10,412 bases of DNA from Escherichia coli. GTDB taxonomy: Bacteria > Pseudomonadota > Gammaproteobacteria > Enterobacterales > Enterobacteriaceae. The translations under genes were made by a program, and so were the position numbers. The stretch lies in assembly GCF_003334255.1 (NCBI RefSeq), contig NZ_QOWU01000084.1; one strand, given 5' to 3'. Below, piece by piece: positions 1 through 10,412 of the stretch; position 1 is the first letter of the stretch, and each line of letters starts with the position of its first letter. The notes below the pieces were generated by a model. It saw nothing but the letters and a program-made list of their open reading frames with translations. It was not told where the DNA came from and ran no database searches.

Positions 1-86
1 AATCGGTGGAGCTGCATGACAAAGTCATCGGGCATTATCTGAACATAAAACACTATCAATAAGTTGGAGTCATTACCGAATTTATT

Positions 87-425
87 ATGAGTTCAGAGCG
101 AGATCTGGTTAATTTTCTTGGCGATTTTTCAATGGATGTGGCCAAAGCAGTTATAGCCGGTGGTGTTGCAACCGCTATTGGAAGTCTGGCTTCTTTTGCC
201 TGTGTTAGCTTTGGCTTTCCAGTAATTCTTGTCGGAGGAGCAATTTTACTGACAGGGATAGTGTGTACAGTTGTTTTAAATGAAATCGATGCTCAATGCC
301 ATTTATCAGAAAAATTAAAATATGCAATTAGAGATGGACTAAAACGGCAACAGGAACTTGATAAATGGAAAAGGGAAAACATGACTCCATTTATGTATGT
401 TCTTAACACTCCACCCGTGATATGA
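87..425 (+). CDS. yafU: Small inner-membrane protein of unknown function (YafU-like, 112 aa); two predicted Gly/Ala-rich transmembrane helices
   Basis: ATG at 87-89 with GGAG at 66-69 upstream; ORF of 112 aa; hydrophobic stretches VAKAVIAGGVATAIGSLASFACVSF and FPVILVGGAILLTGIVCTVVL; very AT-rich codon usage; length and position match my recollection of K-12 yafU (symbol from memory, not searched). Confidence 0.65.
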   Translation: MSSERDLVNFLGDFSMDVAKAVIAGGVATAIGSLASFACVSFGFPVILVGGAILLTGIVCTVVLNEIDAQCHLSEKLKYAIRDGLKRQQELDKWKRENMTPFMYVLNTPPVI

Positions 426-434
426 GGATTAACC

Positions 435-914
435 ATGCGTTTACATGTTAAATTAAAAGAGTTTCTTTCGATGTTTTTTATGGCCATATTATTTTTCCCT
501 GCATTCAATGCTTCTTTGTTTTTTACCGGAGTTAAACCTCTATATTCAATAATAAAATGCTCCACGGAAATATTTTATGATTGGAGAATGTTGATTCTGT
601 GCTTCGGTTTCATGTCGTTTTCCTTTTTAAATATTCATGTAATTTTACTTACGATAATAAAATCATTCTTAATCAAAAAAACGAAGGTAGTCAATTTCGC
701 CACAGACATAACAATACAGCTAACTCTTATATTTTTACTAATAGCTATCGTAATAGCACCTTTAATAGCTCCTTTTGTCACAGGATATGTCAATACTAAT
801 TATCACCCCTGCGGTAATAATACGGGAATTTTCCCAGGAGCAATCTATATTAAAAATGGCATGAAATGTAATAATGGATATATTTCTCGCAAGGAAGATT
901 CAGCAGTTAAATAA
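435..914 (+). CDS. ykfM: Small polytopic membrane protein of unknown function (YkfM-like, 159 aa)
   Basis: ATG at 435-437 preceded by GAGGA (424-428), which overlaps the yafU stop (TGA 423-425), so the two look translationally coupled; about four hydrophobic segments; extremely AT-rich with many rare codons (ATA, TTA, AAT); TAA stop at 912-914. Confidence 0.6.
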   Translation: MRLHVKLKEFLSMFFMAILFFPAFNASLFFTGVKPLYSIIKCSTEIFYDWRMLILCFGFMSFSFLNIHVILLTIIKSFLIKKTKVVNFATDITIQLTLIFLLIAIVIAPLIAPFVTGYVNTNYHPCGNNTGIFPGAIYIKNGMKCNNGYISRKEDSAVK

Positions 915-1016
915 TTAAATATTCTAAAACAAACAGTTTTTAACTCCGGATTCCATGTCCTTTCTTGCACTGTCTTTGTCAAGAAAAATTTCTTATGCAA
1001 AGAATTTTGTATTATT

Positions 1017-1038
1017 GCCGCCAGAAATTCCTGGCGGC
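1017..1038. terminator. GC-rich hairpin (8-bp perfect stem GCCGCCAG / CTGGCGGC, 6-nt loop) between convergent ykfM and yafT; putative bidirectional terminator
   Basis: Seen directly: gccgccag-aaattc-ctggcggc embedded in AT-rich DNA, 13 nt beyond the yafT stop and about 100 nt beyond the ykfM stop. The flanking A/T runs are imperfect, so intrinsic termination is uncertain. Confidence 0.35.
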
Positions 1039-1050
1039 AGATATAATTTA

Positions 1051-1836
1051 TTATTGATAGCGGTTAACCAAATCTTTTACCATCGCTTTATAGGTCTTTT
1101 GCTTAAGTTGCATGATTTGCTGCTCTGTCATATCAGTCGTACTGGCTTCATTCTTGTCGGGCAATGGTGGAAGCACTTTATATTCATAATTCACCGGCGA
1201 CCAGGTAGCCCACTCACCTGTTGCCACATCCACCAGCGTGAAACGTACCAGGTAGCGCAGGGAGATAGCGTCAGTGAGTTTGTCATTTTTATAGTCGGAC
1301 CATACTGTTGATTTCAGCGCAGAGTCATATTTTCCTGTCTGCAACATATCCTGGTAAACAATAATCGCTTTCTGATGTCCTTTTGCAGCCACAAAACGCA
1401 GTGCCTGCATCCAGTTCATATTCTCAGCACTGGCAACATCCTCGTTCTCATTTTTATCTTTGTTTTTGTTACAAGTCAGAGGCTTTTGCCTGTCCGGGAT
1501 ACCAGAGAATGTGGAAACAGTATAATATTTTCGCATCTCCTCCTGCATAATGGTTTCCGGTGCGCGGTTGCCGGATTGAACAAGTATTACAGGAGAATTA
1601 AGGGGAACGCGGAACTCATCTCCATCAAGCGCAGCTTGAATATCCTCTTCGGATACGGCCAGAGTGGTTTCATTACCGAATAAATCTTTGTCTGTCAGTT
1701 GCTGGGGAGTGTTTTTATTAATATTACTTTGTGTGACTTGAGCTTTTTTCTTCTTTTCATCAATAGAAGATTCAGAGGCACATCCTGCAAGCAGCGAGAA
1801 TAACACACATATGCAACAAAGCTTTTTTGAATTCAT
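1051..1836 (-). CDS. yafT: Lipoprotein YafT (261 aa), probably outer-membrane anchored; function unknown
   Basis: ATG at 1836 (plus-strand 'cat' 1834-1836) with GAGGGAG Shine-Dalgarno upstream on the minus strand; signal peptide [19 protein letters not shown] with lipobox LAGC; Ala at +2 after the Cys suggests Lol sorting to the outer membrane; lower GC than the core genes to the right. Confidence 0.8.
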
Positions 1837-2103
1837 AATTGGACACTCCCTCGCCTGTCATAATGATTAGAATATTTAGCATTGATAACGGACTCTAATT
1901 ATATACCTCACTTAAATAATAACAAACAAAATCAATTTGAAATATACATTCATTTAATCAATATAAATTTATTCTCTAGAAATATATTTAAGCTGAATGG
2001 TTCGATATCATTATTGAATTTTAATGAATGAGACAACAAGCGAGAATCACGCACCTACGCCAGAGTAAAATCATTGAACAGAGAAATGGTGGAATTCAAA
2101 TAC

Positions 2104-2163: not shown

Positions 2164-2240
2164 TGGCGGAACGGACGGGACTCGAACCCGCGACCCCCTG
2201 CGTGACAGGCAGGTATTCTAACCGACTGAACTACCGCTCC
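2164..2240 (-). tRNA. aspV: tRNA-Asp (anticodon GUC), 77 nt, CCA encoded
   Basis: Reverse complement of 2164-2240 is GGAGCGGTAGTTCAGTCGGTTAGAATACCTGCCTGTCACGCAGGGGGTCGCGGGTTCGAGTCCCGTCCGTTCCGCCA, which matches the E. coli tRNA-Asp sequence; anticodon loop CUGUCAC. Identical to the copy at 10167-10243. Confidence 0.97.
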
Positions 2241-4385: not shown

Positions 4386-5144
<759 letters not shown>

Positions 5145-5154
5145 TAAAACTTTC

Positions 5155-5183
5155 TTGTCATCGGCTCCGTTCGCCGTTATGAT
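5155..5183 (+). promoter_or_regulatory. Candidate sigma70 promoter for mltD: -35 TTGTCA (5155-5160), 17-bp spacer, -10 TATGAT (5178-5183)
   Basis: Seen directly in the 71-bp gloB-mltD intergenic region; good hexamers at consensus spacing, about 33 nt upstream of the mltD ATG. Not validated. Confidence 0.35.
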
Positions 5184-5215
5184 CGGTCGTCTTTTAAGCA
5201 ACTATTGACACACAC

Positions 5216-10166: not shown

Positions 10167-10243
10167 TGGCGGAACGGACGGGACTCGAACCCGCGACCCC
10201 CTGCGTGACAGGCAGGTATTCTAACCGACTGAACTACCGCTCC
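10167..10243 (-). tRNA. aspU: tRNA-Asp (anticodon GUC), 77 nt, distal tRNA of an rRNA operon
   Basis: Sequence identical to the copy at 2164-2240; sits 52 nt downstream (on the minus strand) of the 5S rRNA. Confidence 0.97.
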
Positions 10244-10295: not shown

Positions 10296-10412
10296 ATGCC
10301 TGGCAGTTCCCTACTCTCGCATGGGGAGACCCCACACTACCATCGGCGCTACGGCGTTTCACTTCTGAGTTCGGCATGGGGTCAGGTGGGACCACCGCGC
10401 TACTGCCGCCAG
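10296..10412 (-). rRNA. rrfH: 5S ribosomal RNA, partial (117 of 120 nt; the 5' three nucleotides lie beyond the window edge)
   Basis: Reverse complement of 10296-10412 matches E. coli 5S rRNA from GGCGGCAGUAGCGCGGUGGUCCCACCUGACCCCAUGCCGAACUCAGAAGUG... to ...GGGAACUGCCAGGCAU; the rrfH label rests on the neighbouring dkgB/yafC context (other rrn operons carry near-identical 5S genes). Confidence 0.95.

Follow-up and report, generated by a model that had tools for sequence, protein, structure and literature searches.

The Tme proteins, described as type VI membrane-disrupting effectors (Fridman et al. 2020, PMC7046647), are defined by a domain with a conserved DxxK, a predicted transmembrane helix and a flanking Asp (PMC7046647). 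In Vibrio parahaemolyticus, Tme1 and Tme2 are toxic in a periplasm-dependent manner, cause loss of membrane potential and entry of propidium iodide, and are rescued specifically by their cognate Tmi (PMC7046647). VasX served as the positive control in these assays. From the cytoplasm, Tme2 somewhat slowed the growth of E. coli and Tme1 was non-toxic (PMC7046647). Immunity genes of type VI secretion systems (T6SS) are also found as orphans, as in Vibrio cholerae (Kirchberger et al. 2017), and have been noted in E. coli (review PMC6730261). It has been proposed that such genes protect their bearers from toxin-carrying kin.

Other T6SS toxins target membranes and are paired with membrane immunity proteins, i.e. 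VasX/TsiV2 (V. cholerae), Tse4/Tsi4 (P. aeruginosa) and Ssp6/Sip6 (Serratia marcescens). All of these toxins act from the periplasm by depolarising or permeabilising the inner membrane, and each is countered by a cognate immunity protein. In pore-forming colicins, such as A, E1 and Ia, a hydrophobic helical hairpin lies among amphipathic helices. Their immunity protein, which has three to four helices in the inner membrane, intercepts the toxin in that membrane.

We analysed a stretch of 10,412 nucleotides of E. coli DNA (the window), in which the ORFs 87-425 and 435-914 encode 112 aa (yafU) and 159 aa (ykfM). Our results indicate that this region is very probably the stump of a T6SS effector-immunity cassette, made of the remnant of a toxin gene followed by an orphan immunity gene. 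The cassette is of a known kind and does not represent a new kind of system; the description of the Tme family in 2020 already accounts for most of the finding. It resembles Tme1/Tmi1 and Tme2/Tmi2 of V. parahaemolyticus (PMC7046647) in having the same C-terminal Tme domain, a linkage with T6SS and, directly downstream, a (predicted) immunity gene for a protein with three to six transmembrane helices, probably of the DUF1240-like class. Unlike the Vibrio effectors, the one of E. coli is encoded directly behind hcp and not behind vgrG, PAAR or MIX modules, and its N-terminus carries a conserved stretch of about 45 residues that is its own. The copy in the window is cut to its last 112 codons and its T6SS is gone, and for the E. 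coli pair toxicity and immunity are predicted.

The likeness to the V. cholerae orphans lies in a (here predicted) immunity gene that has outlasted its functional effector and stands beside the remains of the effector locus, but there one effector was replaced, whereas here the entire secretion system was lost. The orphan state is largely that of one clonal lineage, and hence selection for the retention of ykfM is a proposal. VasX, Tse4 and Ssp6 showed no sequence or fold relationship to Tme in Pfam, NCBIfam and the PDB. Pore-forming colicins may be likened to Tme by mode of action only: Tme does not appear to be one of them, colicin domains gave no structural match to the Tme model (best PDB Foldseek E = 0.075, TM <= 0.2), and delivery would be by T6SS instead of a receptor and Tol/Ton import.

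The yafU ORF is a fragment of a tme gene

The coordinates of the features of the locus are given in Table 1; we write yafU' and YafU' for the truncated gene and its product. The first 77 bases of the window are the right end of IS1, with the C-terminus of insB (ending in SVELHDKVIGHYLNIKHYQ before the stop) and the terminal repeat (...CATTACC); thousands of records contain IS1A/IS1B copies that are 97-100% identical to them. In the alignment, homology to MG1655 and to a T6SS-positive strain begins only at position 78, which is codon 190 of a gene encoding 304 aa. The start codon of the annotated ORF, ATG87, is the internal Met193 of that protein, and the 112 residues of YafU' are 100% identical to residues 193-304 of the intact WP_000908066.1 of strain 300709. 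Because its 5' end was cut by an IS, the annotated yafU is a dead 3' fragment. The copy of MG1655 is likewise a pseudogene, 'incomplete; missing N-terminus' (NCBI PGAP), and in K-12 only an ISAs1 fragment lies between yafV and the stump. The exact IS1/yafU' junction of the window was absent as a single piece among 5,426 genomes. In other strains, IS1 is located elsewhere within tme. The IS1 end of the window is transcribed toward yafU'. We also considered a conserved internal start at Met193, i.e. a separate small protein, and rejected it, because this Met is not conserved in homologs with 35-39% identity.

Table 1. Features of the cassette and its surroundings in the window.
Feature	Position	Strand	Details
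IS1 right end: insB 3' end (stop 60-62) and terminal inverted repeat ending at 77	1..77	+	
tme 3' remnant, nt 568-915 of 915, codons 190-304 and stop	78..425	+	annotated yafU ORF 87-425
DxxK codons, D17-V-A-K20 of YafU' (D209..K212 of the intact protein)	135..146	+	
Two hydrophobic helices, then D68 (D260 of the intact protein)	147..290	+	hydropathy, AlphaFold2, conservation
Effector-immunity junction	423..437	+	TGA 423-425, Shine-Dalgarno GAGGA 424-428, ykfM ATG 435-437; read from sequence
ykfM, intact, 159-aa three-helix inner-membrane protein; predicted Tmi (DUF1240-like)	435..914	+	WP_001236645.1
Conserved C-terminal tail of YkfM, residues 120-147, predicted periplasmic	792..875	+	alignment A3, Phobius
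GC-rich hairpin, probable bidirectional terminator	1015..1040	.	10 pairs, 7 G-C; between convergent ykfM and yafT
yafT, lipoprotein gene, border gene between T6SS island and aspV; context, not part of the pair	1051..1836	-	
tRNA-Asp (aspV), site of the T6SS island	2164..2240	-	ARAGORN, Rfam

The stump present in K-12 retains all three elements of the Tme motif (D17, K20 and D68), and the hydropathy scan places the hydrophobic segments of YafU' at residues ~21-41 (Gly/Ala-rich) and ~45-67. The ORF of the window lacks residues 1-192, i.e. the probable delivery region and about 70 residues of the Tme domain. Among the latter are G129, G138, G164 and G175, each conserved in at least 90% of 58 sequences. 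The yafU' of the window is a pseudogene fragment of a member of the Tme family, and not a functional member.

The stop codon of yafU and the start of ykfM are 9 nt apart, and the Shine-Dalgarno of ykfM overlaps the TGA of yafU. This junction is identical in intact operons (L002, L008), and the published table gives the same distance of 9 between tme and the gene downstream (PMC7046647 Supplementary Data 5). The genes of the homologous pair are separated by 1 nt in Salmonella and by 0 nt in Rahnella, and in all three taxa a Shine-Dalgarno lies at, or overlaps, the 3' end of the upstream ORF. As judged from these sequences, the tight junction is a conserved trait of the intact operon. At the other end of yafU', there is no Shine-Dalgarno at a usable distance from ATG87 (the closest GGAG is 19 nt upstream, within the IS1 end) and no sigma-70-like promoter was detected upstream of yafU'/ykfM on the + strand. 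Since the truncated yafU has neither a usable ribosome-binding site nor a recognised promoter, we regard its co-translation with ykfM in this window as doubtful. ykfM itself retains a good ribosome-binding site of its own (GAGGA). Downstream, the hairpin probably ends the transcript of the cassette. Two antisense ORFs (293-565 and 205-327) received no support. The two genes form an AT-rich islet, with a GC content of 0.39 (yafU') and 0.31 (ykfM) vs about 0.49 in the remainder of the window, and this islet adjoins the tRNA-Asp gene aspV.

A preliminary description of this DNA presented yafU and ykfM as a coupled pair of small membrane-protein genes. Its coordinates, its 9-nt gap and the GAGGA placed over the stop codon all agree with the sequence, as do the AT-rich islet and, by hydropathy, the hydrophobic helices, including the Gly/Ala-rich one in YafU'. 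The pair stands as a tightly coupled module whose two products are membrane-embedded, but yafU is not a complete gene for a small membrane protein: it is the last 112 of the 304 codons of a T6SS effector gene. The view that the two ORFs are almost certainly co-translated must be weakened to doubtful in this window, given an ATG87 devoid of Shine-Dalgarno and promoter.

The intact effector and its context in other genomes

Of the 5,426 complete E. coli genomes over which all our counts were taken, about 47% encode the intact 304-aa protein. Two of its accessions, WP_000908071.1 and WP_000908066.1, are listed as Tme with a domain at residues 122-277 and E-values of ~1e-36 to 1e-38 (PMC7046647 Supplementary Data 5). 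The same table places the Hcp gene 43 bp upstream and WP_001236645.1 9 bp downstream of E. coli Tme, and gives a Phobius transmembrane helix at 234-256. The protein has D209-V-A-K212, followed by hydrophobic helices (213-259) and by D260. When scored over 58 diverse family members, K212 is invariant, while D209 and D260 are conserved in at least 90% of them. A profile search retrieved 702 clusters, whose distant members align at their C-termini to residues ~120-283. Some of these distant relatives bear N-termini of the PAAR (135-138 bits; NCBIfam cut-off 124) or VPA1263-like MIX types. The N-terminal region of E. coli Tme is conserved over about 45 residues and is probably used for loading onto Hcp or the T6SS machinery. 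We considered matches restricted to the N-terminus as a modular delivery domain on other toxins, but they are deletion fusions or IS1-truncated copies (P0059, P0103, P0115, P0141).

The AlphaFold2 model of the intact effector (pLDDT 76) has four long helices at residues 165-290, with helices 199-234 and 238-263 at pLDDT ~80-90. Foldseek searches of the PDB with this model and that of YkfM gave no match (best E = 0.075, TM <= 0.2), and profile searches of PDB sequences with the two proteins found nothing. Given the moderate models (pLDDT 76 and 65) and no match in the PDB, a membrane mechanism would rest on the homology with Vibrio. Scans of NCBIfam, Pfam and PADLOC with the stump, the intact effector, YkfM and YafT returned no meaningful family match. 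Identification came from synteny and the literature and not from such scans.

In T6SS-positive E. coli, a type VI secretion cluster of about 31 kb closes with hcp and, immediately behind it, tme. For instance, the gene order is tssB...tssM-VasL-hcp-tme-ykfM-yafT-aspV in FDAARGOS_1276 and in strain 300709. The homolog of Salmonella likewise follows hcp directly and closes a complete T6SS cluster, and that of Rahnella adjoins an orphan hcp; both are followed by PF06836/DUF1240 genes, at 1 nt and 0 nt, respectively. The T6SS is absent from the window itself, where an Rfam scan found only two tRNA-Asp genes and a 5S rRNA. The E. coli T6SS island has been associated with aspV (PMC5363993). yafT is a conserved neighbour of the cassette, whether or not the E. 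coli strain has a T6SS; it occurs likewise in O157:H7 and in Salmonella, and the Salmonella product matches PF25851 YafT.

We found ykfM in 2,998 of the 5,426 genomes, so that about 45% lack it. The 5' part of tme was present in 2,574 and the intact trio hcp-tme-ykfM in 2,549. These counts mean that tme almost never occurs without ykfM, while ykfM does occur without tme. About 420 genomes encode ykfM without an intact tme, and 371 of them have the junction of the K-12 type. As so many of these orphans share one junction, the retention of ykfM in K-12 may be a historical accident and not an outcome of selection. The stump and ykfM of K-12 equal or nearly equal living alleles, with 1 nt in 1,923 nt differing from strain 300709. 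In E. coli B and other lineages most of ykfM was lost too, with deletion end-points inside the gene. These counts provide a clean natural case of asymmetry between toxin and immunity genes, and of a T6SS island being eroded by IS elements.

This distribution bears on what the pair could be. A lack of co-occurrence in other genomes, named in the preliminary description as a refutation, is strongly contradicted by the 2,549 genomes with the intact trio and by the homologous pairs of Salmonella and Rahnella. Toxin/immunity, one of the candidate readings offered there, gains support from the hcp-tme-ykfM context, the Tme motif and the published listing; the holin-like and small-regulator ones gained none, with no matches to holin families in Pfam or NCBIfam. 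It had also been stated that nothing in the sequence identifies which reading applies, but the context in other strains, the Tme motif and the published family assignment do so. A phage lysis or holin module was rejected, as the window has no phage genes and the ORF is a fragment of a gene for 304 aa.

YkfM as a predicted immunity protein

The exact accession of K-12 YkfM, WP_001236645.1, is listed directly downstream of Tme, which is the position of Tmi (PMC7046647). YkfM has three long hydrophobic segments (residues ~10-33, 52-81 and 85-121), in line with its published Phobius topology, i12-32o52-75i96-119o, which leaves the C-terminus outside (PMC7046647 Supplementary Data 5). Its AlphaFold2 model (pLDDT 65) has helices at 4-40, 50-77 and 84-122. 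This is the architecture of a Tmi, which lacks a signal peptide and spans the membrane with three to six helices. In alignment A3 of E. coli, Salmonella and Rahnella proteins, Y123, C126, G131, Y138, K140 and C145 of the C-terminal tail are invariant, and the model has a beta-hairpin at 137-145. This tail may take part in toxin recognition.

YkfM itself has no Pfam match, even at E <= 10. Its identity is 51% (E = 1e-47) to the Salmonella protein encoded at the equivalent position, for which a PF06836/DUF1240 match is recorded, and 56-66% to two proteins that both bear PF06836 (P0037 and P0032). When the members of A3 were compared with PF06836, 1/7 matched at E <= 0.001 and 3/7 at E <= 0.1. 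The link between YkfM and DUF1240 is transitive, as the authors of the family also describe the one between Tmi and DUF1240 (PMC7046647). Taken with its context, ykfM is predicted to be an orphan immunity gene in this strain. Support for a specific neutralisation of Tme by YkfM comes solely from the asymmetry of their co-occurrence.

Proposed scenario and alternative explanations

The truncation, the synteny, the family membership, the asymmetry of co-occurrence and the motif, established here or in PMC7046647, can be fitted into the following scenario, in which we infer that E. coli Tme is toxic, how it is delivered, that YkfM gives immunity and whatever benefit there is today. The aspV island of T6SS-positive E. 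coli ends with hcp, tme and ykfM. Intact Tme would be injected into the periplasm of neighbours and insert in the inner membrane, where, by homology with Tme1 and Tme2 of Vibrio, it would collapse the membrane potential and leave the membrane leaky. Producer cells and their kin would be spared because YkfM neutralises its cognate toxin. The K-12 lineage has lost the entire T6SS, together with codons 1-186 of tme, through a deletion ending at the ISAs1 fragment; in this window the end of IS1 abuts codon 190. If expressed, YkfM would protect K-12 from the Tme of T6SS-positive E. coli. Our search of the literature found no experiment on the E. coli Tme/YkfM pair and no paper joining yafU with 'type VI secretion'; neither the ykfM papers nor a later search on Tme/Tmi made mention of immunity.

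The same origin is compatible with a pure relic, in which neither ORF is active in K-12 and ykfM, intact because the deletion is recent, is silent or neutral. The single nucleotide that separates K-12 from strain 300709 leaves no time for decay, the orphan state is essentially that of one lineage, the upstream + strand has no promoter-like site, and in other lineages the deletions end inside ykfM. Against this, ykfM keeps a good ribosome-binding site, a ykfM::Tn5 mutant has measurable phenotypes, and the frequency of transposon insertions in ykfM is low in TraDIS data. The last two observations suggest either that expression of ykfM is of consequence to the cell or that proteins cover the region. 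On balance, an entirely inert locus seems somewhat unlikely. The only reported phenotypes of ykfM::Tn5 in K-12 are hyperlethality with nalidixate (nalidixic acid), mitomycin C and peroxide (H2O2) and lower killing by SDS. They are modest, about 2-fold, and common to 14 unrelated genes in the same screen. An immunity role does not predict them. They could fit a YkfM that gained in K-12 a housekeeping role in stress protection, unrelated to Tme, and an RpoS-holoenzyme binding site has been reported in the neighbouring yafT/ykfM region. Yet the same accession occurs in strains with an intact toxin gene, ykfM is missing from nearly half of the genomes, and the effects are modest and shared with unrelated genes, which makes such a co-option very unlikely.

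It is also unlikely that the stump is active at a low level with YkfM as its antidote or, in a milder version, that YkfM is maintained as armour against tme-positive relatives. If the armour version held, K-12, the standard prey strain, would be pre-immunised against this one E. coli effector. The stronger version supposes that YafU' is still made and, entering the inner membrane from the cytoplasm, has a mild toxicity, and that YkfM was kept because it neutralises it. YafU' has the DxxK, a hydrophobic hairpin, an Asp and an amphipathic tail. The stump retains the part of the Tme domain that is best conserved, few TraDIS insertions were recorded in ykfM, as in the antitoxins higA, hipB and relB of the same list, ykfM::Tn5 is hypersensitive to several lethal stresses, and Tme2 has some effect on growth from the cytoplasm. 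Such residual addiction would explain both the scarcity of insertions in ykfM and the hyperlethality of ykfM::Tn5 under multiple stresses, and would make a decayed T6SS cassette act as a chromosomal addiction module. However, the ykfM::Tn5 mutant is viable, ATG87 has neither Shine-Dalgarno nor promoter, domain residues 122-192 with their four conserved Gly are missing, Tme1 is harmless from the cytoplasm, and the TraDIS list contains many other AT-rich genes of horizontal origin, which points to an insertion bias. H-NS would explain such a bias. We find this addiction very unlikely. Hardly credible, finally, are two genuine co-translated small membrane proteins of K-12, be they holin-like, small-regulator or a self-contained toxin/immunity pair. 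The 9-nt gap with its Shine-Dalgarno over the stop codon and the hydrophobicity of both products would fit them, but translation would start at what is Met193 in the 304-aa protein, a residue unconserved in distant homologs, and neither a promoter nor a ribosome-binding site serves this start. Some 2,570 genomes have the 5' part of tme, so the 112-aa ORF is there only the tail of the 304-aa gene, and there are no matches to holin, phage or defence-system families.

Reviews say merely that K-12 has no T6SS. With the cassette read as the stump of an effector-immunity pair, K-12, a common prey in T6SS assays, carries an intact predicted immunity gene against an effector of about half of the E. 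coli genomes, and killing by Tme would stay invisible with K-12 prey unless ykfM is deleted. The aspV T6SS of EHEC EDL933 failed to kill MG1655 (PMC5363993). We considered YkfM as the cause of this failure and rejected it: in O157:H7 Sakai, the slot downstream of hcp holds the unrelated ECs_0212-0215, which showed no similarity to the Tme and YkfM profiles. The current RefSeq names are 'hypothetical protein' (yafU) and 'protein YkfM' (ykfM). On the present reading, yafU should be annotated as a fragmentary pseudogene for a T6SS effector of the Tme family, and ykfM as the gene of a predicted immunity protein of the Tmi (DUF1240-like) class.

Truncation of the effector gene in the window

The preliminary description took yafU and ykfM for a translationally coupled pair of small membrane-protein genes. 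Its reading of the layout holds: there are two ORFs separated by 9 nt, and the GAGGA of ykfM overlaps the upstream stop, as read from the sequence (see table). Both products consist mostly of hydrophobic helices by hydropathy (YafU', ~21-41 and 45-67; YkfM, ~10-33, 52-81 and 85-121), and the islet is AT-rich (GC 0.39 in yafU' and 0.31 in ykfM vs ~0.49 downstream). The nature of yafU proved different. It is the stump of tme, a 304-aa gene of the Tme family of T6SS effectors, of which it keeps the codons from 190 on.

Features of the window
Feature	Coordinates	Strand	Remarks
IS1, right part	1-77		insB C-terminus then terminal repeat; insB reads towards yafU'; matches IS1 copies
yafU' ORF	87-425	+	112 aa; stop TGA 423-425
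ykfM	435-914	+	159 aa; ATG 435; Shine-Dalgarno GAGGA 424-428
GC-rich hairpin	1015-1040		between ykfM and convergent yafT
yafT, lipoprotein gene	1051-1836	-	convergent to ykfM
tRNA-Asp	2164-2240		1.2 kb from AT-rich islet
Second tRNA-Asp	10167-10243	-	right edge of window
5S rRNA gene	10298-10412	-	right edge of window

The homologous ORF of FDAARGOS_1276 has 304 aa, and the 112 residues of YafU' are exactly residues 193-304 of the 304-aa WP_000908066.1 of strain 300709, from which window 78-2000 differs by one nucleotide. Alignments to MG1655 and to a T6SS-positive strain begin only at base 78, which is nt 568 (codon 190) of the 304-aa gene; ATG87 is its internal Met193. Positions 1-77 match IS1 copies throughout E. 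coli in a sequence search, and we take them to be the insB C-terminus and the IS1 terminal repeat. The MG1655 copy, labelled 'incomplete; missing N-terminus' by PGAP, is 9 nt longer and then gives way to an ISAs1 fragment; K-12 has lost everything between this fragment and codon 187. A 9-bp target duplication made by IS1 from MG1655-like sequence could account for positions 78-86 (GAATTTATT); the left side of IS1 lies outside the window. A search of 5,426 complete genomes of E. coli did not find the exact IS1/yafU' junction as one piece.

The proposed co-translation with ykfM is doubtful in the window. ATG87 lacks a suitably spaced Shine-Dalgarno sequence, and we found no promoter-like site upstream of it on the + strand of the window; in the intact gene, GGAGAG precedes the start by 6 nt. 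The tight junction between the two ORFs was inherited from the ancestral operon and is conserved across three genera; it is not evidence for translation of the stump. The toxin gene in the window is dead.

Membership of the Tme/Tmi family

Homologs of tme adjoin hcp in Salmonella (63% identity) and Rahnella (39%), and are followed at 0-1 nt by a gene for a 149-160-aa membrane protein matching Pfam DUF1240. The Salmonella enterica locus has two such pairs in tandem downstream of hcp (L005:10001-13010, DALPDZ010000034.1). Its second effector gene is frameshifted and split (11523-12095 and 12052-12534), with an intact DUF1240 gene (12555-13010), another case of orphan immunity.

Fridman et al. 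2020 (PMC7046647) defined Tme as a toxin domain at the C-terminus in which a DxxK motif is almost invariant and is accompanied by a transmembrane helix and a flanking Asp, and Tmi as DUF1240 or DUF1240-like proteins of 3-6 transmembrane helices encoded directly downstream. Tme1 and Tme2 show toxicity from the periplasm alone, dissipate the membrane potential, let propidium iodide enter and are neutralised by the cognate Tmi only (PMC7046647). Supplementary Data 5 of that study includes E. coli 304-aa proteins, among them WP_000908071.1 and WP_000908066.1, with a Tme domain at 122-277 (E ~1e-36). The entries place an Hcp1-family gene 43 bp ahead of the effector gene and WP_001236645.1 (topology i12-32o52-75i96-119o) 9 bp after it. 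The latter is the RefSeq accession of K-12 YkfM. The system is of a known kind, and published supplementary data already contain its intact E. coli members, the exact YkfM protein among them. Neither the article nor the supplements examined mention K-12, MG1655 or yafU by name; new here are the population counts and an explicit meaning for the names of two K-12 genes.

A tme profile built from ten homologs retrieved 702 clusters (E <= 1e-3). The distant members align to residues ~120-283, as the C-termini of variously long proteins, several of which have a T6SS PAAR domain scoring above the NCBIfam cut-off or begin with the N-terminal region of VPA1263, a MIX effector. Across 58 aligned sequences K212 is invariant, and conservation reaches at least 90% at D209, D260, G129, G138, G164 and G175. 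The N-terminal ~45 residues (L002:11434-11570 in an intact E. coli locus, absent from the window; MAGLRxNxKTQNAQWPDYVGxILRGxQPINQLVPQHPYL) are ~85% identical in homologs only ~35% identical overall and match no Pfam or NCBIfam model. They are a candidate loading or delivery motif of Hcp-linked Tme effectors.

YkfM itself has no Pfam match. It shares 51% identity with the DUF1240 protein of Salmonella, and PF06836 is present in homologs that are 56-66% identical to it. In its alignment, conservation is highest in the C-terminal tail (Y123, C126, G131, Y138, K140, C145), which Phobius places in the periplasm and which we infer to be a disulfide-stabilised toxin-recognition element. The AlphaFold2 models (effector, pLDDT 76, four long helices at 165-290; YkfM, pLDDT 65, three long helices and a hairpin) fit the Tme/Tmi picture but have no PDB match.

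Intact loci and orphan ykfM

The order in T6SS-positive strains is yafV, ISAs1, Rhs, VgrG, Hcp, tssB-C-E-F-G, tagH, tssJ-K, dotU, tssH, vasI, tssA, tssM, VasL, hcp, the 304-aa gene, ykfM, yafT and aspV. Among the 5,426 genomes (features counted when at least 80% covered), 2,998 have ykfM, 2,574 the 5' part of the 304-aa gene, 2,549 the intact hcp-304-aa gene-ykfM trio and 371 the K-12-type ISAs1/stump junction. The 304-aa gene therefore almost never occurs without ykfM, while ~420 genomes, mostly of one lineage, have ykfM without the 304-aa gene. This asymmetry is the one expected for a toxin and its immunity gene.

Natural isolates have inactivated tme repeatedly and independently. IS1 lies at several other positions in tme of other strains (including that of the protein P0115), some copies, such as that of the protein P0059, are deletion fusions, with codon 99 of tme joined to the C-terminus of ykfM in one, and some deletions extend into ykfM (H10, H70).

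If it behaves like its Vibrio counterparts in those experiments, the effector of intact E. coli loci would be loaded via Hcp/T6SS and arrive in the prey periplasm, where its hydrophobic hairpin would enter the inner membrane and cause depolarisation; YkfM, resident in that membrane, would block it. With its own GAGGA ribosome-binding site, ykfM potentially remains an orphan immunity gene. In practical terms, K-12 used as prey is probably immune to the Tme effector.

Residual toxicity of the stump would be another reason to keep ykfM. The K-12 stump retains D209, K212 and D260 (its D17, K20 and D68) and two hydrophobic helices, and lacks all four of the conserved glycines along with the entire N-terminal half. 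In TraDIS, ykfM is among the 'low insertion frequency' genes, 'essential only by TraDIS', a list that also holds several antitoxins and many foreign, AT-rich genes (Goodall et al. 2018). A ykfM::Tn5 mutant is viable, and is killed more by nalidixate, mitomycin C and peroxide and less by SDS (Han et al. 2010). Insertions may be scarce through a bias linked to AT-richness or nucleoid proteins, which is the simpler explanation, or because disrupting ykfM carries a true fitness cost; we regard a residually toxic stump as very improbable.

In E. coli O157:H7 Sakai, four unrelated small genes (ECs_0212-ECs_0215) lie between the last hcp and yafT (L007:9873-11514), with no similarity found to the Tme or YkfM profile. 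This makes the slot after hcp a site of polymorphic cargo in E. coli. Since the O157:H7 slot carries unrelated genes, we reject YkfM as the explanation for EHEC's failure to kill MG1655. YafT (its Salmonella homolog matches PF25851) is retained at the aspV border of the island regardless of cargo or T6SS, and a genomic SELEX study mapped an RpoS-holoenzyme site at yafT (K-12 map position 238050). Elsewhere in the window, GC dips locally to 0.34 at 4801-5200, at the 3' end of ORF 4389-5144, which is gloB by synteny, and in the spacer ahead of mltD, and the second tRNA-Asp and 5S rRNA genes are the end of an rrn operon.
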